Shown here piece after piece: positions 1 to 60,977 of a stretch of 64,000 nucleotides of DNA. A model generated the notes under the pieces. It ran no database searches. It saw only the letters and a program-made list of their open reading frames with translations, and was not told where the DNA came from. The position numbers and the translations under genes were made by a program. Source of the stretch: a virus. Lineage: Duplodnaviria > Heunggongvirae > Uroviricota > Caudoviricetes. Position 1 is the first letter of the stretch, and each line of letters starts with the position of its first letter. The stretch lies in IMG/VR virus record IMGVR_UViG_3300028584_001242; one strand, written 5' to 3'.

Positions 1-1214
1 TTGAGTTTTCACCAACAGGTGAAATAATAACAGCCAATGAGAAGTTTTTAAATTTAATGGGATACTCCCTAAATGAAATAGTAGGGAAAAAACATTCTAT
101 ATTGTGTGACAAACTATATGCAAACAGTGCTGATTACAAAAAGTTTTGGAATAAGTTAGAAGCGGGTGAATATATATCTGATATGTTTAAAAGACTTGAT
201 TCAAAACAAAAAGAAATATGGCTAGAAGCTTCTTACAATCCTATATTTGATAATAACAACAAAGTAGTAAAAGTAATAAAATTTGCAAACGATATTACTA
301 GATATGTAGAGGAAAAAAATGAAGATAAAAGTAAATTAGATGCCCTTAATTCATCTATGGCTGTTATTGAGTTTACACCTGAAGGTATTATTTTAAATGC
401 AAACAATAACTTTTTATCAACAACTGGTTATACATTAAAAGAAATAGTGGGTAAACATCATAATATATTTTGCGAAAAAGCGTATAGTCTTCATTCAGAA
501 TATAAAAGGTTTTGGCAAGATTTAAAAAATGGGCAATTTTTTAATGGTCAATTTAAAAGATTAAATAAACAAGGTAATGATATATGGCTTGAAGCAACTT
601 ATAATCCAATAAGAGACGAAAATGGAAACGTAGTTAAAATTGTTAAATTTGCAAGTGACACCACAAAATTAGTTAACCAATTAGATGCTCAAAAGAAAAG
701 TGCAGAACTTGCATTTTCAATATCAAATAATAATAAAGAAACAGCACAAATCTCAGTAACTACAATAAATGAAACAAATAATGAAATGACAAACATTATA
801 AAATCAGTCAGTGCCACAGAGATTCATTTAAAGTCATTAGAAAAACAATCTGAAAAGATTAAAATGATATTAAATGCTATATATAAGATTGCAACACAAA
901 CTAATTTGTTAGCGTTAAATGCTGCAATTGAAGCCGCCAGAGCTGGAGATGCTGGAAGAGGTTTTGCAGTAGTGGCTAAGGAAGTAAAAGAATTATCAGG
1001 CAATACAAGTGACTTAGTTAAAAGTATTTCTGAAATAATAGAGGAAATTAATAAAGAAACAGAATGTGCGGTTAAACAAATGGAAAGTGTAACTCAGAAC
1101 ACAGAAAGAAGTGTAACATTAATGATTGAAGTCGAGCAGTTAGTGACTGAAATAAGTATCGGCTCTGATAAAATATTATCAGCTATTGCCCAATTATCAA
1201 AAGAGTTAAGTTAA
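1..1214 (+). CDS. methyl-accepting chemotaxis protein with tandem PAS domains (aerotaxis-like), 5'-partial
   Basis: The reading frame is open from nt 3, upstream of the listed ATG at 57. Repeated PAS blocks ([43 protein letters not shown]) precede a C-terminal MCP signalling motif [32 protein letters not shown] terminator follows. Confidence 0.8.
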
Positions 1215-2952: not shown

Positions 2953-3087
2953 TTACTCTGCGTCTTGATGGCGATTCCGGCGACGCTTCCGAAACTCGCT
3001 ATCTTTTTTGTGATACTTCGCTTGTTCGTTGTCTTTTTTCTTGCCACCGCGAAAACGTTCTACTGCGTCACCGAAAGAGCCTTGCAT
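2953..3087 (-). CDS. small highly basic peptide, paralog 1 (44 aa, MQGSFGDAVERFRGGKKKD...RRRNRHQDAE)
   Basis: Hand-translated. AGGAGA RBS. It lies directly behind promoter-leader module A. Two paralogs are at 9019..9153 and 49687..49818. Confidence 0.5.
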   Translation of the reverse strand: MQGSFGDAVERFRGGKKKDNEQAKYHKKDSEFRKRRRNRHQDAE

Positions 3088-3140
3088 TTTGTATCTCCTA
3101 ACATTTTAGTTTGTTTGTGTTGTTTCGTTTTGATGGGATA

Positions 3141-5666: not shown

Positions 5667-5743
5667 TGGTGGGACTTGCAGGACTTGAACCTGCGACCTA
5701 CCGATTATGAGTCGGTTGCTCTAACCAACTGAGCTAAAGTCCC
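5667..5743 (-). tRNA. tRNA with CAU anticodon (Ile2/LAU-type or elongator Met), 77 nt, CCA encoded
   Basis: Full cloverleaf: acceptor GGGACTT/AAGTCCC, D-stem GCTC/GAGC, anticodon stem ACCGA/TCGGT with loop CTCATAA, T-loop TTCAAGT. The anticodon loop and T-stem are close to E. coli ileX as recalled from memory. Confidence 0.85.
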
Positions 5744-6033: not shown

Positions 6034-6118
6034 TGGTGCCCGGTGCCAGACTCGAACTGGCACTCCTTGCGGAAAGGGATTTTAAGTCCCTCGTGTCTAC
6101 CAATTTCACCAACCGGGC
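6034..6118 (-). tRNA. tRNA-Leu(UAA), 85 nt with long variable arm, CCA encoded
   Basis: Acceptor GCCCGGT/ACCGGGC. Anticodon stem AGGGA/TCCCT with loop CTTAAAA. Variable arm TTCCGCAAGGAGTG. T-arm GCCAG-TTCGAGT-CTGGC. Confidence 0.85.
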
Positions 6119-6411: not shown

Positions 6412-7332
6412 TTAATGGTAGACCAATTCACCGATAGATTTCTTGACAAATCGGGCATTTTTTGGGTTACCGTGAATATGAACACCGCCAATACCAGTAG
6501 AAGATCCGACAATGGATTCGGTAGCCGTCAATTTAATACTACCAACACCAGAGGTATTCAACGTGACATTCGCTGCTTTAAAATTAACTGCTTTGATACT
6601 ACCGACACCAGAAGTTTTTAAATCAAAGGTATCGCAAGAACCTTTGAGTGATGAACTACCAACAGCGGCATTAATCATTTTAATGAACTTTGAATGCTGA
6701 CCTGAGTAATCAAACGACCCTGTACCATCAATATTGAACGTTGCTTCATTAAAGCCACCAGTCAAAATACAATCACCTGAGCTTATTTTATTGATAGTAG
6801 CGGTATCAGCAGTCACATCGGCCTGAAAGGTTCCGGTTCCCAAGACATCTAATGACAGGGTTTCGAAAACACCCTTGAACGTGCAATCACCAGCACCTGA
6901 CTTGATGACTTTCATTGTTGACTGCTTGAACTCTTTGATATCTAACTTGCCAACACCTTTATAATCGATCAAATCCAATTGTGGGGCGGTAATAATTAAA
7001 TTCAATACAGGATTAATAAGGACATTTTTTTCAATTTTAACGTCCAACATGTTATTAACGGTACTCACCTTCAAAAAAGGAATCAATTTCTCATTGATTT
7101 CAAGGGTTACATCGTGAGTATCACCTTGCTGGATAATGGTGTTGAAGGGGCCAGAAATTTTAAGCGATGAAAATGCTTTAAAGTCAATAGGATGATTAAC
7201 CACTTGACCATAATCTTCTTTTTTCATACCTTTTGCATGGATACTGCCAGAAACATTAACACCATCAATAGTGATATTGATGTCACCATGCTCTTTTTTT
7301 GCAAAAAAGTTGTTGAGAAAGTCTTTAAGCAT
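6412..7332 (-). CDS. beta-repeat protein resembling DUF2807/DUF4097 (GIN-domain putative adhesin), 306 aa
   Basis: Reiterated SG.G/TG.G blocks (VSGSIHAKG, SGAGDCTFKG, SSGDCILTGG, TSGVGSIKAVNFKAANVTLNTSGVGSIKL, GIGGVHIHGNP). GAGGAT RBS. Confidence 0.5.
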   Translation of the reverse strand: MLKDFLNNFFAKKEHGDINITIDGVNVSGSIHAKGMKKEDYGQVVNHPIDFKAFSSLKISGPFNTIIQQGDTHDVTLEINEKLIPFLKVSTVNNMLDVKIEKNVLINPVLNLIITAPQLDLIDYKGVGKLDIKEFKQSTMKVIKSGAGDCTFKGVFETLSLDVLGTGTFQADVTADTATINKISSGDCILTGGFNEATFNIDGTGSFDYSGQHSKFIKMINAAVGSSSLKGSCDTFDLKTSGVGSIKAVNFKAANVTLNTSGVGSIKLTATESIVGSSTGIGGVHIHGNPKNARFVKKSIGELVYH

Positions 7333-9018: not shown

Positions 9019-9153
9019 TTACTCGGCGTCTTGATGACGATTACGGCGTTTTTTACGAAAATCGTTATCTTTTTTGTGATATTTTGCCTGTTCAGTGTCT
9101 TTTTTCTTGCCGCCACGAAAACGTTCTACTGCGTCACCGAAAGAACCTTGCAT
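9019..9153 (-). CDS. small highly basic peptide, paralog 2 (44 aa, MQGSFGDAVERFRGGKKKDTEQAKYHKKDNDFRKKRRNRHQDAE)
   Basis: Hand-translated. AAAGGAT RBS. It sits behind the promoter-leader module at 9195..9275. Confidence 0.5.
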   Translation of the reverse strand: MQGSFGDAVERFRGGKKKDTEQAKYHKKDNDFRKKRRNRHQDAE

Positions 9154-9194
9154 GTTTTGTATCCTTTTAACTGGTTATGATAAGTAAGCATTAA

Positions 9195-9275
9195 CAAGGG
9201 TAAAGACTTACTGGGTTGCTCGCCCCTTGCCGCTTCAACATGGTTATTATATCAAAGTAAATCGTCAAAAACAAT
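9195..9275 (-). promoter_or_regulatory. repeated promoter-leader module (TGaTATAAT extended -10, leader hairpin CAAGGG...CCCTTG); copy of 39608..39690
   Basis: The -10 box is at plus 9246-9251 on the minus strand. The hairpin spans 9195-9229. The block matches 39620-39672 across about 45 nt. Confidence 0.5.
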
Positions 9276-9296
9276 CTTTTTATAGCAAAATACCAT

Positions 9297-9905
9297 TTAT
9301 ATTTCAGCCAAACCAGTTTTAAAGTAATTCGAAATAAGCAAAATGCGATACAAGTCTTTGACCTGACCAGTAGGATATTTTTGAATTTCTTCCTTGATCG
9401 GTGAATAATCAAATTCATAAAATCCCATAGGTTCTTTGGACATAATAACTTTAATCCAACGATAAGCCTTTTGAGCGTCACGATCAGAAAGAAACAACAT
9501 AAGTTCATTGTCTTTGTTAAGGATCGCGTCTTTCACTTCATATTTATAAAGCTTTGAGATATCAGCCAGCGAATTTTCAGCAGCCGCATACAAACCATCA
9601 AGACCAATCATGACGCGAAGTTCTTCAAGATGACAAGCATTTTCCAGAAAAGTCTTATCATGATCCGTAAATTCAGTGTGATGTGAAATAATCGTGGTTA
9701 ATGCCGCCACTTTATTGAGCATTCCGCCCATAATAAGGATGCTAAGTTCACCTTTTATGGATTCAATACAATTGCTGAAAAAACTATTTTTGAGTGGCCG
9801 AGTAAAGAATCCATTTTTTTCAAGGATTTTCCGTGCTTCACCAATATCCATGCCAAGTTTTATGCCGTAAGAAGAGTATTGAGTCATGATATAAAAAGTT
9901 CTCAT
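9297..9905 (-). CDS. hypothetical protein, 202 aa
   Basis: Listed ORF. A -10 box (GTTATAAT) lies only about 13 nt upstream, so the mRNA may be nearly leaderless. Confidence 0.45.
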   Translation of the reverse strand: MRTFYIMTQYSSYGIKLGMDIGEARKILEKNGFFTRPLKNSFFSNCIESIKGELSILIMGGMLNKVAALTTIISHHTEFTDHDKTFLENACHLEELRVMIGLDGLYAAAENSLADISKLYKYEVKDAILNKDNELMLFLSDRDAQKAYRWIKVIMSKEPMGFYEFDYSPIKEEIQKYPTGQVKDLYRILLISNYFKTGLAEI

Positions 9906-9966
9906 TGAAAAATATGCTTGATTATAACATTATTTTTGATAAAAGAAAAGCCCATGAATGGGCTTT

Positions 9967-10533
9967 TTAATTACGATATAAATCTGTTGGTGGCTGGTAA
10001 GTTGCCTCAATGACTACAAATAAATTATAGCTGTTCATTGGGGCTTGAACTTCGACCACCACATCACCTTTTTTGTATTTAGCCCCTGATGGTTTTGTTA
10101 AGTCTTCATACCCTGCAGCAAGAAGTTCACTTTTCGCTTTGTCATAAACTGATAGAGCATTTTTATAAAGTTCTGCTTTGTCAGCTAAATAAAGATCCTC
10201 TGAACGGACTACATCACTAAATGTATAAGTGATTTTACCACTTCTTACGATACCATTAATATACTCATATTCGACTTCTGGGTTAATACGTTCGCCTTTT
10301 TCTACGACAAGTGTTTTCGACAAGATACTGTCAGTATTTGTAGAGACATCAGTAACGGTAATTTGCTTTCCATCTTCTGATGAACGGTAGACTTTGAAAG
10401 ATGGATATTTACCCACCTGTGAAGCCATCTGTGAGCCATTGACAGGGTAGTTAACAGACGCCGGGGCTTCGGCATACACTTGCGAACAAAGTGCGAATGA
10501 CAGGCCAATGAAAGCCAATAAACGATTAATCAT
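9967..10533 (-). CDS. secreted protein with signal peptide, 188 aa
   Basis: N-terminus MINRLLAFIGLSFALCSQVYA. AGGAG RBS. Confidence 0.6.
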   Translation of the reverse strand: MINRLLAFIGLSFALCSQVYAEAPASVNYPVNGSQMASQVGKYPSFKVYRSSEDGKQITVTDVSTNTDSILSKTLVVEKGERINPEVEYEYINGIVRSGKITYTFSDVVRSEDLYLADKAELYKNALSVYDKAKSELLAAGYEDLTKPSGAKYKKGDVVVEVQAPMNSYNLFVVIEATYQPPTDLYRN

Positions 10534-10566
10534 AAAAAAACACTCCTATAAGAAAATAAAATTTAG

Positions 10567-10597
10567 AAACAAAAAAGCCCCATCGCTGGGGCTTTAT
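10567..10597 (-). terminator. terminator AGCCCCA-tcgc-TGGGGCT
   Basis: Hairpin with a T-run on the minus strand. Confidence 0.55.
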
Positions 10598-10598
10598 A

Positions 10599-10865
10599 TT
10601 ACGAACTTTTTACAGTAAAAGAGTCCGATGTCACTTCTGAACCATCAAGAGAAAGTGCGATTCGATAACCAGAGTAATCGTAATCATAGTAATCTGAGCA
10701 ACTAAGCTCAAACGACACATCTTCTTTGACAATGGACACAACAGCAGCCCTCAACTCAACATCAGCTTCCATCATACCAATAATGGAATCTTTCAACAGT
10801 TCGGTAACAGCCGAACGCACATCAACATCAGTTTGTAGCAAGTGAATCAGTTCTGTTTTGGTCAT
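10599..10865 (-). CDS. acidic hypothetical protein, 88 aa
   Basis: GAGGAT RBS. Confidence 0.5.
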   Translation of the reverse strand: MTKTELIHLLQTDVDVRSAVTELLKDSIIGMMEADVELRAAVVSIVKEDVSFELSCSDYYDYDYSGYRIALSLDGSEVTSDSFTVKSS

Positions 10866-10996
10866 AATAGTATCCTCAGTAGACTATCTAAACGAAAGCT
10901 TGAGGTATTCGACTACAGAACGTTAACGGTATTGATATTAGCAAAGAAATGAAAAAACGTCAAGCTCTTTCAGTTTCTTGCTATATCAATTTCCTA

Positions 10997-11188
10997 TCAT
11001 TCGGATTTTTGTTTGTCGAGAGCTTCTTTTGCATCCATTTCTTCCGCCATACGATCATAGACATCCGCATCCTGATCGCCACAACGGCAAATACAATAGA
11101 TCACTTCATGAGCCTCGATCTGAGTGTTACAGCCGGGGCAGATACCAAATACTTCTTCAACTGGATTAGGGTTCGGGGCGAGTGGCAT
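10997..11188 (-). CDS. zinc-ribbon protein, 63 aa (CPGC...CICRCG)
   Basis: GGAGAA RBS. Four-Cys motif. Confidence 0.5.
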   Translation of the reverse strand: MPLAPNPNPVEEVFGICPGCNTQIEAHEVIYCICRCGDQDADVYDRMAEEMDAKEALDKQKSE

Positions 11189-11340
11189 AATGTTAGTTCT
11201 CCGTTATTTGATGTTTCTATTATAGCACTTTCAGCCAAATTAGACAATAAAAACTTTCAAAAATCAGCCACTTGCAATCAAAAATAACAGGAGTATACTT
11301 ATAAATTAGATAGCAAGCTAACAATATAAAAGGTGATAAA

Positions 11341-11898: not shown

Positions 11899-11917
11899 CG
11901 TTTGTATCTTAAATTAG

Positions 11918-11990
11918 GAGGACCGACTGGGACTCGAACCCAGAATTCATCCGGTTAAGGACGCTTGTTCCCGTTAAACACCACCGGCCC
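11918..11990 (-). tRNA. tRNA-like gene with a contracted 6-nt anticodon loop (possible non-canonical tRNA or pseudo-tRNA)
   Basis: Acceptor GGGCCGG/TCGGTCC with two G-U pairs, D-arm TGTT-TAACGGG-AACA, canonical T-arm CTGGG-TTCGAGT-CCCAG. The anticodon arm folds only as CGTCC-TTAACC-GGATG. It has its own consensus promoter and terminator. Confidence 0.5.
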
Positions 11991-12156: not shown

Positions 12157-12331
12157 AGATGCGGGATGAGAAGAAACTCATCTTTCAGGGTTGTTGTTTA
12201 GCATCCGATGACCATTCAGAGGCTCTGCCGACATGGTAGCTCGTCATACGCTGGTGATGTATGATGGAAAACCGCACCGCATAAAAGGAGTCCAATCTTC
12301 TTTTTGGGAGAGGCTAAATGCCTCTTTTTTT
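12157..12331 (+). ncRNA. candidate small RNA N1 (about 170 nt, GC-rich island between promoter and terminator)
   Basis: No ORF longer than 26 aa. Terminator GAGAGGC-taaat-GCCTCTT plus T8. Contains GCATCCGATGACC and UUUUUGGGAGAGG motifs shared with N2 and N3. Confidence 0.4.
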
Positions 12332-13605: not shown

Positions 13606-13702
13606 TTTTAAAGCTCCGTTCGATGATTTGTTGAAGTAATTATAACACAATGAGAATCAAAAAAAAAGCCTATCAAGCGATAGGCTGTAAAAAATGTTCA
13701 TT

Positions 13703-13927
13703 TTAAACCGAAGCGGAAAGCTCAGCGATATGCAAATCAAGAGCTTTCTTGGCCTTATTGAAGTCGTCCCACAAGATCGCCAACTTTTGAGCTTCTGGTG
13801 TGTCTACCAACAGATCTTTGGTGGGATAAGCAGGATCGATATGCAGCAAACCACCGGCTTCATGAAGACGCAAAACTTTCGCAATGCTCATTTTGTCAGG
13901 AACGTTAGTGTGAACAGGCTGGCTCAT
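13703..13927 (-). CDS. hypothetical protein, 74 aa
   Basis: AGGAG RBS. Confidence 0.5.
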   Translation of the reverse strand: MSQPVHTNVPDKMSIAKVLRLHEAGGLLHIDPAYPTKDLLVDTPEAQKLAILWDDFNKAKKALDLHIAELSASV

Positions 13928-13992
13928 GGTGCAAACTCCTACAAGGTGGGAAGGTCTTCATTATACAACAAAGACCTTGATATTGAAAGCTT

Positions 13993-14595
13993 TTATTCTG
14001 CTGGCACCAAACCTTTTGCAATTGCCATCGAAACGCCGATGATGGCACTGCAAGTGCGGATTTCACCACTTTCAATCATCTTCATGGTGTCTTCACGACT
14101 GATTTTGATAATTTGAATGTCTTCATCATCAATACCATGCGAACGGGTCAGATCAAAAGAAGAAGAGTCCACATAGGCGAAGTAGGTATGGTGCATTTCG
14201 TTGGAGATACCCGCACTGGTGTAGCCTTTGCACAGGTAGCGAATATCTTCCATCTTAATCAGCATATTGGTTTCTTCTTGGCCTTCACGCTGAGCCGCTA
14301 CCATCGGATCTTCTTTTGGATCGATGTGACCAGCTACAGGCTCAATAACCCAAGCGTCAGTTTCATCAGGATGTTTGAAAGCACCCATGCGGAATTGTTT
14401 AACAAAAATAAACTCATCAGTCGCTTTATCATACAGGGTCAGGCAAATAGCCGACGCCTTGCAAACAACAAAATGATTGATATCCTTGGTGCCACCAAAA
14501 ACACTTTCATACGAACCTTTCACTTGTTCAAGCCGAAGGAAAGAACGCTCAAAGTGAGAGATGATGTCAGTAGTGTTAAAAACTGGAATGGTCAT
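13993..14595 (-). CDS. Nudix hydrolase (ADP-ribose pyrophosphatase-like)
   Basis: Nudix box GHIDPKEDPMVAAQREGQEETN. AAGGAG RBS. Confidence 0.85.
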   Translation of the reverse strand: MTIPVFNTTDIISHFERSFLRLEQVKGSYESVFGGTKDINHFVVCKASAICLTLYDKATDEFIFVKQFRMGAFKHPDETDAWVIEPVAGHIDPKEDPMVAAQREGQEETNMLIKMEDIRYLCKGYTSAGISNEMHHTYFAYVDSSSFDLTRSHGIDDEDIQIIKISREDTMKMIESGEIRTCSAIIGVSMAIAKGLVPAE

Positions 14596-14653
14596 AAAGT
14601 TGTAACTCCTTGGTCATTTTATGTCTTGCGAACAGCGTTATTATAAATGAATC

Positions 14654-14857
14654 TTACTGACAAAAGAAGACTCTTTGTTCTTCTTTAAATTCTCGTTGAA
14701 CGGGCATTAAAAATGGTTCATCATCAACATGCCCGCCAAAACCACCACGCGGAAAATCAAAATGAAGATCGCTCGAAACAGAAAACTTAACAGGAGCAAT
14801 TTTGCCATCTGGGGTGATATGGACAACACCTTCACGTTTAATTGTTTTATTGGTCAT
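14654..14857 (-). CDS. hypothetical protein, 67 aa
   Basis: AGGAG RBS. Confidence 0.45.
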   Translation of the reverse strand: MTNKTIKREGVVHITPDGKIAPVKFSVSSDLHFDFPRGGFGGHVDDEPFLMPVQREFKEEQRVFFCQ

Positions 14858-14927
14858 ACGATATAACTCCTGATTGATAATCTATTATACACCAAAAAAT
14901 CATGTTTTAGCAATAATTTTCTATGAT

Positions 14928-15822: not shown

Positions 15823-16317
15823 TTAAGCAGCTTCGGCAACCATTTCGCGTTTTTTCTTCCGTTCTTCTCTTTTTCTTGCAATGACAACAGGATCTCGACG
15901 TTCACGTTTTTTTTGCTTTTTGGCTTCCATCCTTGCCTCAAAATCGAGCATTTGGACAGCAAGTTCATCCAATGTGATAACCTGATGACCTTTTGTAGTA
16001 TTGCAGTGACAGCACATCGGCTGAAGGTTTTCAAGTTCATTGCTACCGCCATTTTTCTTAGCAGTAATATGGTCAATAGTCATCAAAACCATATCGTCAG
16101 TAAACAAGTCCCAATGCCCACCACCTTGGCTATCTCGGGAGAAAATCAACCGATTTCCGACATTCTGGCAGTTGGGCGTTACACATGCCAAGCCTTTATG
16201 GAAAAAGACACGAAGTCGTCGGTGATTTTCGAAAGCATGAATACCATTGGCTGAACGTTCACGAATAAACTTATAATTACAGCTCTGAATGTTATCACCT
16301 TTCTTGAAAGTCTTCAT
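15823..16317 (-). CDS. HNH endonuclease (homing-endonuclease-like), 164 aa
   Basis: Motif DHITAKKNGGSNELENLQPMCCHCN. Basic C-terminal tail. Confidence 0.8.
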   Translation of the reverse strand: MKTFKKGDNIQSCNYKFIRERSANGIHAFENHRRLRVFFHKGLACVTPNCQNVGNRLIFSRDSQGGGHWDLFTDDMVLMTIDHITAKKNGGSNELENLQPMCCHCNTTKGHQVITLDELAVQMLDFEARMEAKKQKKRERRDPVVIARKREERKKKREMVAEAA

Positions 16318-16329
16318 ATTCTGAATTCC

Positions 16330-16806
16330 TTAGACGGTTTCTGGAACTTCGGATTGCTGACGACGTTCAGCACGACGGTCTTCTTTGGCTTGTTTCTTGG
16401 CAATTCTTCTAGCTTCTTTGTTTTTTTTGTTCTCGACTACCAACAAGGCAAGTTCATCCAGTGTAATGTTCTGATTTTTTTTGAATGACTTGCAAACAAT
16501 ACACATTGGTTGCAAGTTGGAAAGTTCATCGTTGCCGCCATTGAATTTAGGAACAATATGATCAACAGCCATCAAAATAGCATCATCAGTGTAAACATCC
16601 CAATGCTTACCACCTTGGGGGTCAAGAGAAAAAATAAGTCGAGTGCCAACATGATTGCAATTAGGAGTTACACACGCAACACCTTTATTGACAAAGACTT
16701 TGAGACGACGATGATCTTCAAACATCTGCAAAGCAACCAAGTTACCTTCATAGACATAAGAAAAATTACAACCGGGGATTTTGTCGTCTTTTTGAAAGGT
16801 TTTCAT
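16330..16806 (-). CDS. HNH endonuclease paralog, 158 aa
   Basis: Motif DHIVPKFNGGNDELSNLQPMCIVCK. Paralog of 15823..16317. Confidence 0.8.
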   Translation of the reverse strand: MKTFQKDDKIPGCNFSYVYEGNLVALQMFEDHRRLKVFVNKGVACVTPNCNHVGTRLIFSLDPQGGKHWDVYTDDAILMAVDHIVPKFNGGNDELSNLQPMCIVCKSFKKNQNITLDELALLVVENKKNKEARRIAKKQAKEDRRAERRQQSEVPETV

Positions 16807-17865: not shown

Positions 17866-18123
17866 ATGAACACACCTGTACAAGAAATTCCTTGGCATGA
17901 AGCTCCTGCTGGTACCACACACTACGCTCCTGAAAGTGAAGACTTTCAATATGCGGAAAGCTGGTATCGTTTTGAAAACGGTGAGTGGTATTGTGTCAAC
18001 ACGTATAATGCTTGGCGTGTAGTGAATCGTGGAATTAAAGCATGGCATCATATTGGCAAGACACTCAAACGCCCAATGACTGATTTGGTTGATCGTGTTG
18101 CGTCTGTTGAATCGACAAGCTAA
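17866..18123 (+). CDS. hypothetical Trp-rich protein, about 85 aa
   Basis: Start MNTPVQEIPW downstream of the promoter. Plus-strand terminator follows. Confidence 0.5.
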   Translation: MNTPVQEIPWHEAPAGTTHYAPESEDFQYAESWYRFENGEWYCVNTYNAWRVVNRGIKAWHHIGKTLKRPMTDLVDRVASVESTS

Positions 18124-26815: not shown

Positions 26816-27937
26816 TTACTCGGGAATATCGACTTGTTTACGAGCAAACACCATGATAGCGGCTTGCTTGTAATCAATTTCATTGCCCGAATACTTACTG
26901 ATCAAGACATGCAGCAACAATGGAGCCACTTCTTTGGCTTTACGAGCGTAATCGCCACGTTCCAAACCTTTGTGTTCTTCATAGAAACTTTCAACGGTGC
27001 GAACAAGGTAGTGGTAGCTTTTACGGGCGTAGTCTTCTACTTCATCCAAGCGAGCCAGAATTTCAGCCAGTGGGAAGTTATCGCTGTGCGTCCGGTAATG
27101 ATACAGCGAACGAATTTCGTCCAAAATTTCGTGAAGAGTTGCTTCATAAATAACCTGACGCTCTTTCGACCGATCCTGAATATTGACCACTGCCGACATT
27201 TTCAGGTAAGGGATTGTTTTGACCTTATACATATCAGGGCCAAATTCAACTACATAACCCTCAATTTCAGGGTCATTAACGTTGAGTTCATTGATAGGGA
27301 TACGTTTCACCAAATGGGCCGCAATAACCGGGTATTTGGCAGCAAATTCAGCAGAACGAATATCGACATAAGCACCAGTGCTCATATCACGGGCTTTCAG
27401 GATATGAACAGAATAATCAGTGTATTCAATGAACACGCGGTTCTTGGGCGTGGTCAATTCCAAGTCAACCGAAACACCAGTGCGGGTCAACCGTTCAATA
27501 TCAGCATGCAACTCAGGGCTGATAGATTTTTCAACAAGGTCATAATTGGCAAAAGTTGGCTTCTTTTTGCTCTTGTAGTAAAGCGTATCGTTAACTGGCG
27601 AGATATAGCTGGTCAGCAGGGAACCATCTGGCTTCAAGTAAGCATGATCCGCTTCTTCGGGCTTGATCTTCTGAGTTTCTGGAGTTTCACCGAGCGAGAA
27701 GAATTTCTGCATTGGCAATGCCACCAGCACTGGCTCATCACCGCCCATGTAGAACATGACCCCACGGCAATCTTTAGCACCCGGAAGTTTGAATTCAGAG
27801 TGCTTTGGAATGTCATAGTTGAAGACACGGTAAGTCCCGCCGTCTACTGCTGAGGTTTCATCCCCGTATTTAAAAGACCCCGGATTAGTAACCAACAGGT
27901 TCATCAGTTGGGCATACAGTTCTTGTTGATAAGTCAT
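26816..27937 (-). CDS. RNA ligase, Rnl1 family (T4 gene 63-like), about 373 aa
   Basis: Motif I KPDGSLL. The N-terminal block YRVFNYDIP...CRGVMFYMGGDEP...QKFFSLGE is colinear with T4 Rnl1 as recalled from memory. Confidence 0.8.
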   Translation of the reverse strand: MTYQQELYAQLMNLLVTNPGSFKYGDETSAVDGGTYRVFNYDIPKHSEFKLPGAKDCRGVMFYMGGDEPVLVALPMQKFFSLGETPETQKIKPEEADHAYLKPDGSLLTSYISPVNDTLYYKSKKKPTFANYDLVEKSISPELHADIERLTRTGVSVDLELTTPKNRVFIEYTDYSVHILKARDMSTGAYVDIRSAEFAAKYPVIAAHLVKRIPINELNVNDPEIEGYVVEFGPDMYKVKTIPYLKMSAVVNIQDRSKERQVIYEATLHEILDEIRSLYHYRTHSDNFPLAEILARLDEVEDYARKSYHYLVRTVESFYEEHKGLERGDYARKAKEVAPLLLHVLISKYSGNEIDYKQAAIMVFARKQVDIPE

Positions 27938-27994
27938 GTGAATCTCCACAATTAAATTTGTCTGAATGTATTATATCAAAAACTGATTTTTAAT

Positions 27995-28312
27995 TCAAAC
28001 TTTTCTTCGTGCTTGCATGATTTTTCCAAGCATATTGCCTTGAATGTCGCCCTGTTTAGGCCAAGCCGACATTTCAAATTTGTTATCCATTGTGACATCA
28101 GAACCATCAAAAACAAAAACAACATCGTCAAAGCTGATTTTCTTTTCAGCAGCAGCCAAGCGGAATGCAGTGATAACACTGGCCGTCGCAGTGGTGTAAC
28201 TCACATCACCAAACTGACGAAGAGAAATAAGCTCGTCAACAAGAGACACACAAAAGCCATCTGGGGTTGCAACACCATTTTCTGGGTCATAAACAATTCG
28301 AAATTTAGTCAT
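27995..28312 (-). CDS. hypothetical protein, about 105 aa
   Basis: Start MTKFRIVYD. GAGG RBS. Confidence 0.5.
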   Translation of the reverse strand: MTKFRIVYDPENGVATPDGFCVSLVDELISLRQFGDVSYTTATASVITAFRLAAAEKKISFDDVVFVFDGSDVTMDNKFEMSAWPKQGDIQGNMLGKIMQARRKV

Positions 28313-28403
28313 AGAAACCTCTGTGTTAATCAGTTGATTATACATGAAATATTGTTTTCAAACAACGAAAAAGACAGTCAAAGACTGCCTTTTATTGTGT
28401 TCG

Positions 28404-28787
28404 TTACGATTTTGCGTCCATCGCTTCTTTCTGTTCAAGATAGAAGACATACAGGCGAGTGTATTCAATGGCTGCAGAAAAACGAGAATAGTTACGTTCA
28501 GGCTCAGAATATGCTTCTGGTTCTTCGGTTATCCACCAAGAGTTGAAAAGGCTACGCAGTTTTTGAGCCAGATCCATCATAACAACAGCAGAAACGTCTG
28601 GAAACATCATAGCAACCAGTTGAAAGTTCGGTGGACAAGCAATGGTTTCCTCAATGCCACAAGAACCATCTTCGACCAAAGACCAACAAACAACAGACGT
28701 ATCTCCTTTACGGAAACGTGCGATGAAGTTCAAAAAATCTTTGTTTGTAATATCTACATCGGCTGCTTTTTCACGAATAGTTTTCAT
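28404..28787 (-). CDS. hypothetical protein, 127 aa
   Basis: GAGG RBS. TGTATAAT -10 box upstream. Confidence 0.5.
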   Translation of the reverse strand: MKTIREKAADVDITNKDFLNFIARFRKGDTSVVCWSLVEDGSCGIEETIACPPNFQLVAMMFPDVSAVVMMDLAQKLRSLFNSWWITEEPEAYSEPERNYSRFSAAIEYTRLYVFYLEQKEAMDAKS

Positions 28788-28906
28788 TGAGTAAACCTCT
28801 GTTTTGAATGGATTGATTATACATCAAACACTCAACATTAACAACTAAAAAATAGATTATTATAAAAAAAGCCCCGCAAATGCAGGGCTTCTTTGTTCAT
28901 GCTGAG

Positions 28907-30028
28907 TTAAACGGGCGGGGACAAGTCGCCAAGCTCAATTTGTTCCAACGACCAATCCACCAGATGGTTTTTAGAGTAGTGATACAAGTAGTCGTTTTTG
29001 TGACCACGAATCGCCCCCATAACAAAACCAAAGTGTTTATGGCCTTTGAGCTGAATTGCAGCAGCTTTCACGTCAACACCTTTGAATTCAGCAGCAATAT
29101 TATCAACTTCTTTCGACAACGCTTCAATCGAAGCTTTGATAGCGTCATTGATTCGATAAATCTCACTCAAATCAGCCGTTGGCGAATTCAGCGACAAATA
29201 AGCGATGTAATCATCAAGTTTTTCTTCAACCACCAACCGAGCAATATCACGCTCCCGAACAAAGCTAACCGCATGATGGAGGTTCATATACCATTTGGTT
29301 TTGATTTTGATCATGTTACCGTTAACGAATTGAATAACATAGCCTTCAATCCCTTCAACAGTGTTCAGCGACTTCAACAGGGAAGCCAAATCAAATTCTT
29401 CACCAAACAGAGGCTTGTTAACAGGAATATCAAACAACAACGCCAGTTGGTCTTTTTCAGCAGGCATTAAGTAATCGCCTGTGATGTTGTGACGAACATG
29501 AAGCAATGTCATGTTGTCTTCGTCATAACGCAAAACGATACGATGTTTTGGCGAAGTAAATTCAAAAATAGGGGTCAGTTGGGCCTGAGAGCAATATTTA
29601 GTGAACTCGTAGTATTTCTGGTTGCGAGACACAAAGCCTTCTGCCGAAACAGCCACATCCGATTTGAACGACTTCTTGGATTTAGCAAAGAATTCGCCTT
29701 TGAACAGCCCTGTGGTAATCATGGAGCCATCCATTTTATCAAACCCGGCTACCATCGTGCTCCAATCCAAAACGGCTGGCTGGACTTCTGCCCGCTCTGC
29801 CAAGTTAAAGAATTTGTGCAATGGACGCGACAGGATTTTACCATTGTCGTCAAAAGTAATACCGCGAGCTTCTTTTTCAACCGGAGTGTTGAAAGAGTCA
29901 CCGTTGCTGATGTTGTAGCAAACGATATCGGCACCGTTATCCTGTTTATTAACAGAAATATAGGCACGGTCTTTGATATGAGGAATCATATCATCAAGGG
30001 TTTCAATACGCGGGAAGATGCTGGACAT
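28907..30028 (-). CDS. RNA ligase, Rnl1 family, second paralog, 373 aa
   Basis: Motif I KMDGSMI, block ARGITFDDNGKILSRPLHKFFNLAE. Same architecture as 26816..27937. Confidence 0.75.
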   Translation of the reverse strand: MSSIFPRIETLDDMIPHIKDRAYISVNKQDNGADIVCYNISNGDSFNTPVEKEARGITFDDNGKILSRPLHKFFNLAERAEVQPAVLDWSTMVAGFDKMDGSMITTGLFKGEFFAKSKKSFKSDVAVSAEGFVSRNQKYYEFTKYCSQAQLTPIFEFTSPKHRIVLRYDEDNMTLLHVRHNITGDYLMPAEKDQLALLFDIPVNKPLFGEEFDLASLLKSLNTVEGIEGYVIQFVNGNMIKIKTKWYMNLHHAVSFVRERDIARLVVEEKLDDYIAYLSLNSPTADLSEIYRINDAIKASIEALSKEVDNIAAEFKGVDVKAAAIQLKGHKHFGFVMGAIRGHKNDYLYHYSKNHLVDWSLEQIELGDLSPPV

Positions 30029-31568: not shown

Positions 31569-32417
31569 TTACTGCTTTGGTTGAACTACGGGTTGCGGGA
31601 CTGTTACCCCTTGCGGGAGCGAACCACCCACTACGACCAGCATATTAACATTGTCTTTCTTTTTGACCACTTCAACAATTTCTTTCTGAATTTCGATTTC
31701 TCGACTTTTCAGATATTGTTCCGGTGACATGTTCATTTTAGTCATGTATTCATTGTCAGCGAGGGCTTTGTTGGTTTCAGCCTGCTTACGCTTTGTCTCG
31801 GCGTCTGCACGGGAATCTTCAGTCAAAGCTCGTTGAATTTGTGCTTCTGTTCGTGCCGTTTCAGCCAGCACTTCATCAGGAGGCATGATAGCACCGATAG
31901 TCACCGCAAGAATACGAACCGGAATGCCTTTTGCAACCACAATGTCAACCATTCGCTTGTAAACAGCATCTTCACCAGAGTCAGTAACTTCTTGTTTCGT
32001 GGTCAACTCTTTAACTGTATGTTGTCGAGCAAAGTCTCGCAGCATGTTTTGAAAGTCTTTTTTCAGGTTGTTTTCATACATGGAATCACCAAACTTCTCA
32101 TGATAGATATAAGCCTGTTCAGGGATGAGTTCATAACGAACAATCGCTTTAAAGTCTACCGGAGTCGAGTTAATGGTTGCCAAATCATTAAACGATTCTT
32201 CTTTTTGAGCAGGTTTAATGTCGTAGATATGCATTGTTGAAGTTGGTGCAATATAGTAACGATCACCACCTTTATACACTTCTTTATCAACACCACCTGT
32301 GGTAAAAATAGGGTGTTTTTCCAGAACGCCAACGAAACCAGCATCTACGGATTCAGAACACCCACTGAGGGCAACTGATGCCAGAAGAACAAGAGAAGCA
32401 AAAATCTTTTTAATCAT
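31569..32417 (-). CDS. SPFH/band-7 family lipoprotein, 282 aa
   Basis: Lipobox LSGC. Coiled-coil region TEAQIQRALTEDSRADAETKRKQAE typical of prohibitin/HflK-like proteins. Confidence 0.65.
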   Translation of the reverse strand: MIKKIFASLVLLASVALSGCSESVDAGFVGVLEKHPIFTTGGVDKEVYKGGDRYYIAPTSTMHIYDIKPAQKEESFNDLATINSTPVDFKAIVRYELIPEQAYIYHEKFGDSMYENNLKKDFQNMLRDFARQHTVKELTTKQEVTDSGEDAVYKRMVDIVVAKGIPVRILAVTIGAIMPPDEVLAETARTEAQIQRALTEDSRADAETKRKQAETNKALADNEYMTKMNMSPEQYLKSREIEIQKEIVEVVKKKDNVNMLVVVGGSLPQGVTVPQPVVQPKQ

Positions 32418-39225: not shown

Positions 39226-39564
39226 TTAATAGTAGCTACGGTTATACAGGCGGTTAGTCGTGCGACGAAGCTGTTCTTCAAACACCCGACGCTGACCACT
39301 GGACAAGCAACGGTCTTTACTGGTTTCGATGCTAGCGATACGTTTCTGGAACATTTGATTGGCTCGCTGGGCTTCTTTTTGGGATTCAGCAAACCGAACA
39401 TCAGTTGCACGGCGAATATAGGCATTTTGAGCTTGCTTGTCAGCATTCACGATGCATTTGCGTTCAATTTGACGTTCTTTGTAGGAGCCATATTGAGCGG
39501 TTGACATGCAGCCGGTCATCATTACAAGGGCAAGAGCAGCAAAAACAATTTTCATTACTTTCAT
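39226..39564 (-). CDS. lipoprotein, 112 aa
   Basis: Lipobox MMTGC. Behind the repeated promoter-leader module. Confidence 0.55.
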   Translation of the reverse strand: MKVMKIVFAALALVMMTGCMSTAQYGSYKERQIERKCIVNADKQAQNAYIRRATDVRFAESQKEAQRANQMFQKRIASIETSKDRCLSSGQRRVFEEQLRRTTNRLYNRSYY

Positions 39565-39607
39565 GGTCGTATCCTTCTCGTTTCAATTAAGGTCGAATGA
39601 GCAATTA

Positions 39608-39690
39608 CAAGGGGAAAGGCTTATTTGATTGCTCGCCCCTTGCTGCTTCGATGGAGTAATTATATCAATATCGAACTAGATAATCAATGT
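39608..39690 (-). promoter_or_regulatory. repeated promoter-leader module (TGaTATAAT, leader hairpin CAAGGGG...CCCCTTG); copy of 9195..9275
   Basis: The -10 box is at plus 39659-39664. The hairpin spans 39608-39642. Confidence 0.5.
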
Positions 39691-40050
39691 TTTTGGTGAA
39701 TTTCTTCTGATAAGTTCGCAAAAGAAAGTGGTCATAAATTTGAGCTTCTTCCAAAAACCTTTTGGAGAAAATTGAGAACTATGATAGGTATACAAAGTAT
39801 TTCCTTTCCAATGATCAATCACCATACTACCGCGAAAAATCATCAGAGTAACGGAGTTATAATCATACTTATAGTAAGTTATTTTGCCAGAAACAGGATG
39901 AATAACTGGCTCACTGGTTGATTTGCTAAACTTAATTCTAGCTCCGACTCTGTTAAATTTGTCCTTACTAAAATATTCAACGGGCAAAGAATAACCAATA
40001 TTCATGCCAACCAGAAATCGCATCAACAAAATTTGAAAGAAGATTATCAT
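39676..40050 (-). CDS. hypothetical protein, 124 aa
   Basis: AAGGAA RBS. The listed extent overlaps the promoter module, so the true start may lie downstream. Confidence 0.4.
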   Translation of the reverse strand: MIIFFQILLMRFLVGMNIGYSLPVEYFSKDKFNRVGARIKFSKSTSEPVIHPVSGKITYYKYDYNSVTLMIFRGSMVIDHWKGNTLYTYHSSQFSPKGFWKKLKFMTTFFCELIRRNSPKTLII

Positions 40051-41669: not shown

Positions 41670-42302
41670 TTATTTCTTCAATCGAACCACATACATCAAA
41701 GCGTCTACTTGATCAATGCGAGAGTTATCACATTGCACATGAAGGCTGATCGATGGATACTTATTGCCAGTGAGGCGATGAAACTCTCTCAGGAACGATT
41801 GACGAATTTCACCCACATTTGGGTCAAAGTAGATATAGTCTGTGCGTGGGCTGATTTCACAATATTTGAAGCCAAGATTGTCATAGGCTTCTTGCAAAAA
41901 GTGAAGATCGGTTTCTTCAATGATCTTTTTACCCACCCGCATTTTTCGCGTCAACAAGCTTTCTGGAACATCACGGATGTTGTCTAACAGAGTGGCTGTC
42001 AAGCTACCAACTTCCAGATCAATCTTTTGATTGTGCAAGGCAACTTTTGCCTTTTCTGCCTCAACAAGCGTATTCATCTCGTTCATGGAAGCAATAATAG
42101 ACTTTTTCAGTTCTTCAACTCGTTTCGGAAGGTTCTGAGTATTGAACTGTGTAAATGCACACAGGATTTCTGCTGGCCCAATAACAAAACCATCTTCGGC
42201 GTAAATATCCAAAACTTCAACAACCGGAAGCCGACTCTCTTGAAGGTTGTCAATTTTAACTGCGGTGTCTTTGGCAAGTTGTTGAGCTTTTTGGGCATTC
42301 AT
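41670..42302 (-). CDS. hypothetical protein, 210 aa; paralog family member
   Basis: Block LQEAYDNLGFKYCEI...YIYFDPNVGEIRQSFLREF matches 42709..43341 and 18254..18901. Confidence 0.55.
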   Translation of the reverse strand: MNAQKAQQLAKDTAVKIDNLQESRLPVVEVLDIYAEDGFVIGPAEILCAFTQFNTQNLPKRVEELKKSIIASMNEMNTLVEAEKAKVALHNQKIDLEVGSLTATLLDNIRDVPESLLTRKMRVGKKIIEETDLHFLQEAYDNLGFKYCEISPRTDYIYFDPNVGEIRQSFLREFHRLTGNKYPSISLHVQCDNSRIDQVDALMYVVRLKK

Positions 42303-42708: not shown

Positions 42709-43341
42709 TTATTTAACAGCGGCCTTCTGAATACGCTGCAGGTGGTTAATGAAGTCAACCGAAGTGACATTCATATAACCTTTTGGATTTACATAGTCAG
42801 GGAAACGCACCAAGAAGCGTTCGGCAATGAGATCTCGCAGATTAGGGCTTACTTTTGGGTCGAAGTAGACGACATCACGGAGTTCTTCCTTCAAGAAGTG
42901 AGTAACACCAAGTTCCAAATAAATTTCACGGAACGCCTTCATGTGTTCATCTGTAAATTTGAGGGTATTAATTTCCACTTTCCGGCTCAATACTTTCTCA
43001 GGTGCAGTTTCCACAATTTTTTCCATGTTCAACACTTCAAGATGTTCTTTGCCATGAATAGCGACATTATAAGTGCGATTTTCTTTAACACATTCTTCCA
43101 CTTCATCATTGTAAGCCTTCAACAAAGCGACAATCTCATCACGCATGTCAACAGCTTTGTCAGACAAACCAGAATCATCCGAACAACTCAGTGCTTCTGC
43201 AATTGCCAGCAAAGAAATAGTGGTATCTTCATCATCAAAGAACAACTTCTGAGCATCAGATACTGGCAGCAAATGAGAACGGATTTCTTGTTGAGTTTTC
43301 TGAGATACCTGAACAGCTTCAATGATTTGAGTAAGCGACAT
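42709..43341 (-). CDS. hypothetical protein, 210 aa; paralog family member
   Basis: Block FREIYLELGVTHF...VVYFDPKVSPNLRDLIAERF. Confidence 0.55.
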   Translation of the reverse strand: MSLTQIIEAVQVSQKTQQEIRSHLLPVSDAQKLFFDDEDTTISLLAIAEALSCSDDSGLSDKAVDMRDEIVALLKAYNDEVEECVKENRTYNVAIHGKEHLEVLNMEKIVETAPEKVLSRKVEINTLKFTDEHMKAFREIYLELGVTHFLKEELRDVVYFDPKVSPNLRDLIAERFLVRFPDYVNPKGYMNVTSVDFINHLQRIQKAAVK

Positions 43342-45935: not shown

Positions 45936-46604
45936 TTATGGTGCAACTGGTTCTCTGCAGACTTCATAATAATAATAGTATGAACGCAGAACGTCATAAT
46001 GTAAAGATTTTACTTTAAATGCACCGCGAGTATAAGTATAACCACCACTCACAAAAGTTGTTGCTTTAGGGTAAGTCTTAGTGGTGTTTGTTGTATCAAT
46101 TTTAGTAGAACCATCCCATTGTAACCCCATACCATAAGTTGTTGTGTATCCATCATAAGTAGCAATATCATACCATCTGTAAGCATGTCCACTAGTAGCT
46201 GAATACCCACATTCTTTAACTATTTTAGTACCAATAGAGCTAACATTATAAGTGGCATCACTTAACACCTGTGTTTCTTTGGAAGTAACTTGATTACGAA
46301 CAGCCCCAGAAACAGTGTGTCTTTCAGAAGTGGTTACAGTACGTTCTTGCGATTGTTGACAACCAGAGAATGTCTTTGTATACGTCAATCCAAGTGGTTG
46401 TGTGTTTTCAAGTGGCGAAGCACTTTGACAATCATGTGGAGTGCCTACATTAATCCAAGTAGAAATTACAGGATCAGCGGAAACCCACTGACCAAGATCT
46501 TTAAATGTGACAGGAACATCTGGATATTGTATTTGATATTCTGCGAAAGAATTCATTCCTAACAATGAAAGTACAGGAACTAAGAGTATTTTTTTAATGG
46601 ACAT
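45936..46604 (-). CDS. secreted protein with signal peptide, 222 aa
   Basis: N-terminus MSIKKILLVPVLSLLGMNSFA. Tyr-rich C-terminus. Its N-terminus resembles that of 52788..53816. Confidence 0.55.
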   Translation of the reverse strand: MSIKKILLVPVLSLLGMNSFAEYQIQYPDVPVTFKDLGQWVSADPVISTWINVGTPHDCQSASPLENTQPLGLTYTKTFSGCQQSQERTVTTSERHTVSGAVRNQVTSKETQVLSDATYNVSSIGTKIVKECGYSATSGHAYRWYDIATYDGYTTTYGMGLQWDGSTKIDTTNTTKTYPKATTFVSGGYTYTRGAFKVKSLHYDVLRSYYYYYEVCREPVAP

Positions 46605-49597: not shown

Positions 49598-49670
49598 GGC
49601 TGTATGATGGGACTCGAACCCACGACTACCGTTTTTCGACGGAGTTCTGCCGACTGAACTACAAACAGCC
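49598..49670 (-). tRNA. tRNA-like gene with a contracted 6-nt anticodon loop, CCA not encoded
   Basis: D-arm GTTC-AGTCGGCA-GAAC (A14, G18/G19), T-arm GTGGG-TTCGAGT-CCCAT, 6/7-bp acceptor. The anticodon arm folds only as CCGT-CGAAAA-ACGG. It lies immediately downstream of basic-peptide gene 3. Confidence 0.45.
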
Positions 49671-49686
49671 AAAACTGTAAAATTCT

Positions 49687-49818
49687 TTATTCGTTAATGT
49701 GACGATCACGACGCTTCTTTCGCCAGTTCTTGTCTTGCTCATGAGTTTTTGCTTTTTCTGTGTCACGTTTTTTACCACCACGGAAACGTTCTGTTGCGTC
49801 ACCAAATGAACCTTGCAT
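49687..49818 (-). CDS. small highly basic peptide, paralog 3 (43 aa, MQGSFGDATERFRGGKKRDTEKAKTHEQDKNWRKKRRDRHINE)
   Basis: In-frame internal ATG of listed ORF 49687..49869. A TGTATAAT -10 box lies about 30 nt upstream. Confidence 0.5.
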   Translation of the reverse strand: MQGSFGDATERFRGGKKRDTEKAKTHEQDKNWRKKRRDRHINE

Positions 49819-49928
49819 AATATAAATACCTTTGTTTATTAGACTTTTATTATACATCAAAAAGCACATTAAGTAAATAGCAAAAATGATATTTTTTAAA
49901 AACTTTTTAATGGTCTAAAAATATCCCA

Positions 49929-57441: not shown

Positions 57442-57559
57442 AAAAAAATCCTCTAAATGTTTGGGGCATGATATCACAAATTCAAAATAAATGACAGGTC
57501 TATTTTAATACAGGAACAAAAAAAAGGGCCGAAGCCCTTTTCTATGTAGTTCGCAATTA

Positions 57560-59814: not shown

Positions 59815-59962
59815 GTGTATATTCCTTTTCTTTGTTTATGGTGCCAATTATACACAAAAATAAGATTTTAGACAACTCTTTTCTAGACTGTCAAAATAAA
59901 AAAGACAATTTTTAGAAATAAAAAGCCCCACATCTGTGAGGCTCATTTTAAAGCATTTTGGA

Positions 59963-60409: not shown

Positions 60410-60435
60410 GATTAAGAGAGCCTTTTCAAAAGTGG

Positions 60436-60918: not shown

Positions 60919-60977
60919 TTTATACTCCTAATGTGTTCGACAATTATAGATCAAAATGTTGTTTTCGTCAATGGCGA

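Follow-up and report, generated by a model that had tools for sequence, protein, structure and literature searches.

The window examined here is the whole stretch of IMG/VR virus record IMGVR_UViG_3300028584_001242 that was analyzed, 64 kb long and part of a contig of ~1.85 Mb; absences reported below hold within the window. It carries genes for a Nudix hydrolase, an oligoribonuclease (Orn) and a CinA-family amidohydrolase, the last followed by a kinase gene.

13993-14595, minus strand: Nudix hydrolase gene, two-domain NudF/NudK-type, 200 amino acids (PF00293, TIGR00052)
14263-14331, minus strand: Nudix box, residues 89-111, GHIDPKEDPMVAAQREGQEETNM
50907-51494, minus strand: Orn gene, DEDDh 3'-5' exoribonuclease, 195 amino acids (NF003765)
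60436-60918, minus strand: stand-alone CinA-family Ser/Lys amidohydrolase gene, divergent "TTGY" subfamily, 160 amino acids (PF02464, TIGR00199)
59963-60409, minus strand: P-loop kinase gene, AAA_33 or polynucleotide-kinase-like, 148 amino acids (PF13671, phrog_2071, TIGR01663)
13667-14913, minus strand: predicted Nudix transcription unit (consensus scan for promoter and terminator signals)
59923-60971, minus strand: predicted two-gene unit of CinA and kinase (consensus scan)

The three genes are separated by 36 kb and 9 kb and fall into three separate predicted transcription units. In the Nudix unit a promoter-like site (14913-14884) is followed by a 67-amino-acid open reading frame (ORF; 14654-14857), the Nudix gene, a 74-amino-acid ORF (13703-13927) and a terminator-like hairpin (13686-13667). 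This order, with flanking ORFs of 66-67 and 73-74 amino acids, is retained in every close relative. A conserved partnership of the Nudix gene with its two flanking ORFs was nevertheless ruled out, because the order is lost in a 290 kb viral relative described below. The CinA unit runs from a strong promoter-like site at 60971-60943 (TTGACG-17-TATAAT) through the CinA gene and the kinase gene, which starts 26 nt downstream of it, to a terminator-like hairpin at 59944-59923. The Orn gene is flanked by ORFs of 253 and 150 amino acids, and the next terminator in the consensus scan is situated at 50314-50289. The Rfam scan detected no riboswitch or other RNA near the three genes.

The Nudix, Orn, CinA and kinase genes are all under purifying selection, with ratios of nonsynonymous to synonymous substitution (dN/dS) of 0.07-0.2 at dS 0.4-1.1 (0.07-0.2 for Nudix, 0.14 for Orn and 0.08 for CinA). 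In the GTDB representative genomes (two scans) no protein exceeds 37% identity to the Nudix protein; Orn is at most ~45% identical to named cellular proteins, and the CinA protein at most 47% identical to cellular proteins at near-full coverage and at most 57% over partial alignments. Because of the purifying selection and the ceiling of 37-57% identity to named cellular proteins, the three genes are not recent host copies, an origin that an earlier note on this DNA had itself set against its own proposal.

The Nudix protein matches PF00293 with an E-value of 9.6e-10 (39 bits, cut-off 21.1). Its best NCBIfam match, TIGR00052 (YffH/AdpP), scores 78.8 bits, just below the threshold of 79.55. Residues G89, E95, R103, E104, E107 and E108 are retained in the Nudix box and are invariant in 12 clade members having 50-92% identity. 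The box departs from the consensus GX5EX7REUXEEXGU at two structural, non-catalytic positions, U being Gly105 and G being Asn110. The gene and the domain are as the earlier note described them, but its "perfect" Nudix box is not: with Gly105 and Asn110 off consensus, the box is, on its sequence, complete for the catalytic residues only.

The closest PDB sequence matches of the Nudix protein are nearly equal, with E-values of 3.5e-12 for NudK (3o52) and 9.2e-12 for NudF (1g0s). The AlphaFold2 model is of moderate quality (pLDDT 69.5; TM score 0.5). In a Foldseek search it aligns over its full length, ~201 columns, with the ADP-ribose diphosphatases of Klebsiella and E. coli (9drd and 1g0s; E-value 2.5e-11), and NudK ranks below these. 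The model has a two-domain architecture consisting of an N-terminal beta domain and the Nudix fold. The protein shares its length, its two-domain layout and the catalytic Nudix residues with NudF (1g0s, 9b1z) and NudK (3o52), whereas it is only 19-28% identical to them, has Ala128 in place of a proline and is changed at the two non-catalytic box positions. Its acidic loop, D156-D157-E158-D159-I160, is invariant in 12 homologues; its counterparts are ENEDI in NudF and EDEDI in NudK. The protein is probably a NudF-type nucleoside-diphosphate-X pyrophosphatase, for which ADP-ribose is the most likely substrate.

The placement of the Nudix gene near tRNA and HNH genes, which the earlier note had compared with that of T4 nudE beside the T4 tRNA genes and segB, is accurate as to the HNH genes. 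Two of these lie 1.2 kb upstream:

15823-16317 and 16330-16806, minus strand: two tandem HNH endonuclease genes (PF01844, E-values 8.5e-11 and 1.7e-5)

They occur in one or two copies among relatives, as expected of mobile homing genes. The closest Rfam-confirmed tRNA, however, is 7.9 kb from the Nudix gene. The only tRNAs in the window that Rfam confirms are those at 5670-5743, 6037-6118 and 49599-49668; a tRNA-like call at 11917-11990 was made by ARAGORN without Rfam confirmation. T4 nudE (67035-67490) does lie 3.7 kb from the cluster of tRNA genes and segB, but the parallel is positional only. T4 NudE (gene e.1) is a phage Nudix enzyme reported to be active on ADP-ribose, FAD, ApnA and NADH, and is encoded a few kilobases from tRNAs and a homing endonuclease. 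It is, however, a single-domain protein of 151 amino acids and segB is of the GIY-YIG type, whereas the window has a two-domain protein of 200 amino acids and HNH genes. The two Nudix proteins are not orthologous: BLASTP aligns just ten residues of the box (E-value 0.23), and no T4-like record is present among the 11 tblastn matches of the window protein.

Orn scores 198.9 bits against the oligoribonuclease equivalog NF003765 (cut-off 106), with residues 10-194 covered, and can be aligned over its entire length with E. coli Orn (1yta, 7vh4; E-value ~3e-37). The DEDDh residues D17, E19, D126, H172 and D177 match the E. coli catalytic residues and are invariant in 18 homologues. The full-length Orn reported earlier at this position is thus confirmed. 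The substrate-contact motifs TGL, HYR and DVS of bacterial Orn (E. coli 1yta, V. cholerae 6n6a) are kept, whereas the identity to E. coli Orn is ~41%, a seven-residue insertion follows the first motif, and the Trp position of "DDW" is occupied by Tyr. Relatives having 46-49% identity are found on IMG/VR contigs of 171-350 kb and are closer than any named cellular Orn. The window protein falls in a large metagenomic clade, as yet without a name, in which jumbo viral contigs are represented. The ORF just upstream of the Orn gene (51551-52312, minus strand, 253 amino acids) has no known domain and is among the best conserved of the lineage. Its product is 36.7% identical to a protein of Salicola jumbo phage SCTP-2, the best match in a cultured phage, and 57% identical to that of the 290 kb viral relative.

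The CinA protein matches PF02464 with 106.7 bits and the PncC_domain model TIGR00199 with 97.3 bits (cut-off 68.9). Its AlphaFold2 model has a pLDDT of 95.5, and the top fold match is the nicotinamide mononucleotide (NMN) deamidase of A. tumefaciens, whose activity has been established biochemically (2a9s; TM score 0.88). The inactive E. coli YdeJ (5kol) fits the model equally well, and fold matching is therefore unable to separate active PncC from YdeJ. The protein was also set against the conserved sequence blocks published for active NMN deamidases (Sanchez-Carron et al. 2013, PMC3855486; PMC5384747). Ser24, Lys56 and Tyr51, equivalent to S31, K63 and Y58 in 2a9s, are invariant in 19 homologues. 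Block P-II is present as G39-S40-S41, together with Arg137 (R145). In block P-III, which reads Y51-N-I53-D-M-K56, the N60 position is occupied by Ile53; the substitution N60D, together with Y58F, has been linked to the inactivity of YdeJ. Block P-IV reads D71-C72-V73-S74 instead of G-A/V-V-S, with C72, V73 and S74 invariant in the subfamily. Block P-VI reads TTGYVDKDN instead of S/T-G-I/V-A-G-P-x-G-G, the whole subfamily having TTGY[AV], and block P-VIII reads RTAIQ instead of RxxVR. This pattern of kept and altered blocks is shared throughout a subfamily of bacterial and metagenomic proteins.

The window protein thus has the fold of PncC (2a9s; C-terminal domain of T. thermophilus CinA, 4ct8), and its Ser24, Lys56, Tyr51, Gly39/Ser41, Thr98/Gly99 and Arg137 match S31, K63, Y58, G46/S48, T105/G106 and R145. 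It is 29% identical to PncC, however, and differs from it in Ile53, DCVS, TTGYVDKDN and RTAIQ. The earlier note had called it a CinA-C/PncC NMN deamidase. Membership of the CinA family and the match to the PncC_domain model hold, but because four of the nine conserved blocks differ from those of proven NMN deamidases, "PncC" is a family-level label here, and NMN deamidase activity is possible. As the subfamily keeps the Ser/Lys dyad without the blocks that define NMN deamidases, automatic "PncC" labels in phages and bacteria may be wrong.

The kinase encoded beside the CinA protein matches PF13671 (E-value 3.7e-9), phrog_2071 (1e-21) and the polynucleotide kinase model TIGR01663 (6.6e-7), and it has a weak match to the kinase domain of mammalian PNKP. 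Adjacency of the two genes is kept in the close clade, in which the CinA proteins are 88% identical, and is lost at 46-47% CinA identity. Because of this loss in more distant relatives, the adjacency may be mere inherited synteny. A role of the pair in a route from nicotinamide riboside through NMN to nicotinic acid mononucleotide was considered and rejected: the adjacency is confined to the close clade, and the kinase resembles polynucleotide kinases rather than RNK and is unrelated to the kinase of the NAD cluster of jumbo viral contig L100, described below.

The window genes are short and lie nearly all on one strand, many of them with sigma-70-like promoters and GC-rich hairpin terminators in between. 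Of the ORFs in a stretch of at least 80 kb, ~95% have no Pfam or PHROGs match. On the left this ORFan landscape extends past the window edge for at least 10 kb, and on the right for ~7 kb. In exact look-ups, seven of ten window proteins, and the Nudix protein, were found on one JGI contig of 1,851,360 bp; no match was obtained for the chemotaxis protein, because its gene is cut by the window edge, or for the 140- and 202-amino-acid proteins and the CinA protein. Orthologues are present on contigs of 1,917,244 (Ga0370506_000001), 1,859,102, 1,843,594 (ERZ27281805 k141_522346), 1,071,457 and 834,842 bp. These are separate JGI, ENA and Logan records, in which the Nudix gene is situated hundreds of kilobases from either end.

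The lineage was not found in 185,579 GTDB species genomes. Single-protein scans of IMG/VR gave no match for any of the three genes, and megablast of 12-17 kb against the INPHARED phages gave none either. Relatives in IMG/VR were found by alignment-based scans. The 290 kb contig UViG_3300024308_000302 is a true distant relative, the only one of the lineage in IMG/VR, and shares in similar order the Nudix (58% identity), HNH, 271-amino-acid, CinA (46%), kinase, 253-amino-acid (57%) and 151-amino-acid HNH (58%) genes. There is no Orn gene between its 253- and 151-amino-acid genes. Phage marks comprise HNH genes and tRNAs, members in relatives of the T4 families Y00F and Y07C and of Lar, the amber-suppressor tRNAs of a related contig, and two RNA ligases (phrog_562, E-value 6e-117) whose best cultured match is in Ralstonia jumbo phage RsoM2USA (41.7% identity):

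26816-27949 and 28907-30028, minus strand: two neighboring T4 Rnl1-type RNA ligase paralogues, 377 and 373 amino acids

This ligase pair and the polynucleotide-kinase-like kinase (59963-60409) suggest a capacity for RNA repair.

The reading that we favor, with confidence about midway between doubt and assurance, is that the three genes are independent, unlinked and vertically inherited, and serve nucleotide and ADP-ribose recycling in a new lineage resembling jumbo phages, in whose early, ORFan-rich region they lie. The observations underlying it are the identity of the genes, their intact catalytic residues, purifying selection, separate transcription signals, a phage-like context and the absence of close cellular homologues. 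The substrates and the physiological role of the enzymes, as we infer them, would be the following. A dimeric NudF/NudK-type Nudix enzyme would hydrolyze ADP-ribose to AMP and ribose-5-phosphate, or act likewise on a related nucleoside-diphosphate-X compound. Orn would return the RNA ends of 2-5 nucleotides left by other RNases to the mononucleotide pool. The CinA-family Ser/Lys amidohydrolase, presumably co-transcribed with the polynucleotide-kinase-like kinase, would act on a nicotinamide-type or related nucleotide. Together the three enzymes would help to sustain the replication of so large a genome and to dispose of by-products, without forming a dedicated counter-defense module.

Several points weigh against this reading. 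A conserved proline ~15-16 residues after the Nudix box (SPGG) reportedly marks ADP-ribose pyrophosphatases. It is present in both NudF and NudK, and in the window protein its place is taken by Ala128 (S127-A128-G129); the most distant members of the Nudix clade (P0009-P0011) still have the proline. Four conserved blocks of the CinA protein, described above, are unlike those of proven NMN deamidases. No virion gene was seen in the window, and the designation "phage" therefore rests on context. In other jumbo phages, PncC and Nudix genes are clustered with NAD genes. Finally, NAD salvage genes may be present elsewhere in the ~1.85 Mb contig, beyond the 64-kb window, and would change the reading.

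The earlier note had regarded the trio as typical of phage countermeasures to NAD+-depleting defenses. According to this explanation, which appears unlikely, ADP-ribose is cleared or recycled by the Nudix enzyme, NMN passes through PncC into the Preiss-Handler pathway of the host, and Orn plays a supporting part. The families can act in the NAD metabolism of large phages, and to that extent the note is supported. A Nudix step following the NADase has been proposed for jumbo phages, in which Nudix domains would process the ADP-ribose freed by host NADases (Iyer et al., PMC7824862). In E. coli, PncC lets NMN reach NAD+, and one bacterial homologue of the window CinA subfamily adjoins an NrtR-type NAD regulator. 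Compact NAD salvage clusters were observed in two unrelated jumbo viral contigs, L099 (IMGVR_UViG_3300031994_000003, 333 kb) and L100 (IMGVR_UViG_3300028591_000080, 230 kb), and both hold PncC and Nudix genes. The L099 cluster consists of NADAR and NadE, then CinA/PncC, Nudix, NAPRTase, a nicotinamidase-type isochorismatase and NMNAT. The L100 cluster consists of NadE, then CinA, a deoxyribosyltransferase-Nudix fusion, an NrtR-like regulator and an AAA_33 kinase.

The likeness of L099 and L100 to the window is that they are jumbo-sized and encode CinA/PncC and a Nudix protein of the 200-amino-acid class, L100 also having an AAA_33 kinase. Their CinA genes, however, directly follow NadE and carry the canonical SGV(S/A)GPG block, whereas in the window the genes are dispersed and represent other subfamilies. 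The window Nudix protein and kinase have no similarity to the L099 and L100 copies beyond the superfamily level, and the window CinA protein is 28% identical to that of L099, belonging to another subfamily that lacks the AGPxGG block.

Every window ORF of at least 60 amino acids (~110 in all) was scanned against Pfam as pseudo-concatenates. No NAPRTase/Nampt, NMNAT, phosphoribosyl-pyrophosphate-synthetase-like, NadE, SIR2, macro or NADAR domain was found among them, so that an NMN source (Nampt) is absent from the window; nor was any NadV/NatV gene or other component of NARP1, NARP2 or NARP3. Beyond the three genes, the kinase and the HNH pair, the Pfam matches are a PAS-PAS chemotaxis protein, GNAT, DUF2807, the two T4 Rnl1-type ligases and SPFH. 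NARP1 consists of Adps and Namat, NARP2 of Nampt and Nmnat, and NARP3 of PnuC and a NadR-like protein; none employs PncC, a stand-alone NudF-type Nudix enzyme or Orn. NatV of the KVP40 NARP2 (NadV/NatV) bears a Nudix module, and the NARPs touch ADP-ribose or NMN chemistry, as the window genes do, but the enzymes that define the NARPs are missing from the window. Moreover, ADP-ribose hydrolysis would consume the substrate of NARP1, and Orn has no known NAD role. The three genes are dispersed and, by prediction, separately transcribed; their neighbors are ORFans, the polynucleotide-kinase-like kinase being the sole annotated one. PADLOC assigned no gene of the window to a defense system and returned a generic DEDDh match only. 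The trio is thus not a typical countermeasure of the described kind, although an anti-defense role for it is possible.

Orn reportedly is a dedicated diribonucleotidase, and all of its catalytic residues are present here. It might accordingly be thought to destroy pApA, pGpG or opened cyclic oligoadenylates, with the Nudix enzyme cleaving the immune signals gcADPR or His-ADPR, since Nudix enzymes cleave nucleoside-diphosphate-X bonds; a review of jumbo phages does name NAD+-metabolizing proteins as possible disruptors of signals. Such degradation of immune signals is nevertheless improbable. A literature search gave no phage Nudix enzyme shown to act on Thoeris signals, and no anti-defense neighbor was seen. 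Known defense signals are cyclic or end in a 2',3'-cyclic phosphate and are consequently poor substrates for Orn.

A function of the genes in RNA repair and turnover seems very doubtful. In that case the CinA-kinase pair and the two Rnl1-type ligases would mend nuclease-cut tRNA, Orn would clear the fragments, and the substrate of the CinA protein would be other than an NAD metabolite. This would fit the resemblance of the kinase to polynucleotide kinases, the Rnl1 paralogues at 26816-30028, the richness of the region in tRNA genes and the departure of the CinA protein from the NMN deamidase blocks. However, no member of the CinA family is known in RNA repair, 30 kb separate the kinase from the ligases, and the CinA-kinase adjacency does not extend to more distant relatives.

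An unrecognized cell having the 1.85 Mb contig as its chromosome, with its own housekeeping copies of the three genes in a large phage-derived island, is very unlikely. Such a cell would fit contig sizes of 1.84-1.92 Mb, which are typical of small bacteria, the chemotaxis, SPFH, DUF2807, GNAT and several lipoprotein-like genes of the window, and the binning of one tiny contig as Eubacterium sp. However, the ORFs are short, have individual promoters and terminators and are for the most part unmatched in Pfam and PHROGs, relatives are on IMG/VR viral contigs and not in GTDB, and Orn is just ~41% identical to E. coli Orn. An origin from a superintegron or from Vibrio chromosome 2, which was raised by the contig sizes and the small ORFs on one strand, was rejected, as there is neither an attC-like high-copy repeat nor a GTDB relative.

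A number of other features were observed. The left edge of the window cuts a gene for a soluble PAS-PAS methyl-accepting chemotaxis protein of 440 amino acids (1-1214, plus strand; 9944-11266 in related contig L017), which matches MCPsignal (E-value 3.6e-32) and phrog_8572 (5e-34). Its GC content equals that of the surrounding phage-like DNA, and ORFans carry on beyond it. Just to its left, at 9024-9767 (plus strand) of L017, is an ORF resembling PTH2, the archaeal/eukaryal-type peptidyl-tRNA hydrolase, as judged by eye from an N-terminal motif. Contig L017 also has, within a nine-tRNA array, two tRNAs with the anticodon CUA (amber suppressors) at 12190-12265 and 17991-18064. The window ORFs read normally in the standard code.

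Conserved intergenic repeats of 147 nt occur in three copies of 63-85% identity (2953-3099, 9019-9165 and 49684-49830), the last adjoining the tRNA at 49599-49668, and repeats of 95 nt in two copies of 74% identity (9187-9281 and 39600-39694). Logan assemblies break close to the repeat copy at ~9.1 kb. Two tandem pairs of paralogues on the minus strand have no Pfam or PHROG match: 54947-56188 and 56215-57477 (413 and 420 amino acids), and 41670-42302 and 42709-43341 (210 amino acids each). The latter pair has weak homologues (24-31% identity) in the 290 kb IMG/VR relative. For the early region of a phage, the number of products predicted to be secreted or lipoprotein-like is unusual; they are encoded at 6412-7332, 31569-32417, 9967-10533, 39226-39564, 45936-46604 and 52788-53816. 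Among them are a DUF2807 adhesin-head protein and an SPFH/Band 7 lipoprotein. A homologue of the DUF2807 protein carries the label "MAG: Eubacterium sp." in its database record (MEF9919020.1), and no other taxon label was met.

Jumbo phages are already known to encode Nudix hydrolases, DEDDh exonucleases and CinA/PncC proteins, and the three genes show no new mechanism. Their ~1.9 Mb setting may be the genome of a giant phage, an extrachromosomal element of another kind, cellular DNA that contains a large island derived from a phage, or a chimeric assembly. A size of ~1.85-1.92 Mb is roughly 2.5 times that of the largest phage genome on record, 735 kb according to a review of June 2026, and a literature search found no report of a phage of this kind larger than 1 Mb. 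It is conceivable, though we hold this only tentatively, that the Nudix, CinA-like and Orn genes are long-standing residents of undescribed phage-like replicons having complete genomes of ~1.85-1.92 Mb and a largely self-sufficient nucleotide and NAD economy, in which the CinA-kinase operon could be a new step of nicotinamide-nucleotide salvage. If this is true, a recurrent phage-like replicon of ~1.9 Mb would redraw the upper limit of phage size, and its supply of nucleotides to itself would be directly testable.

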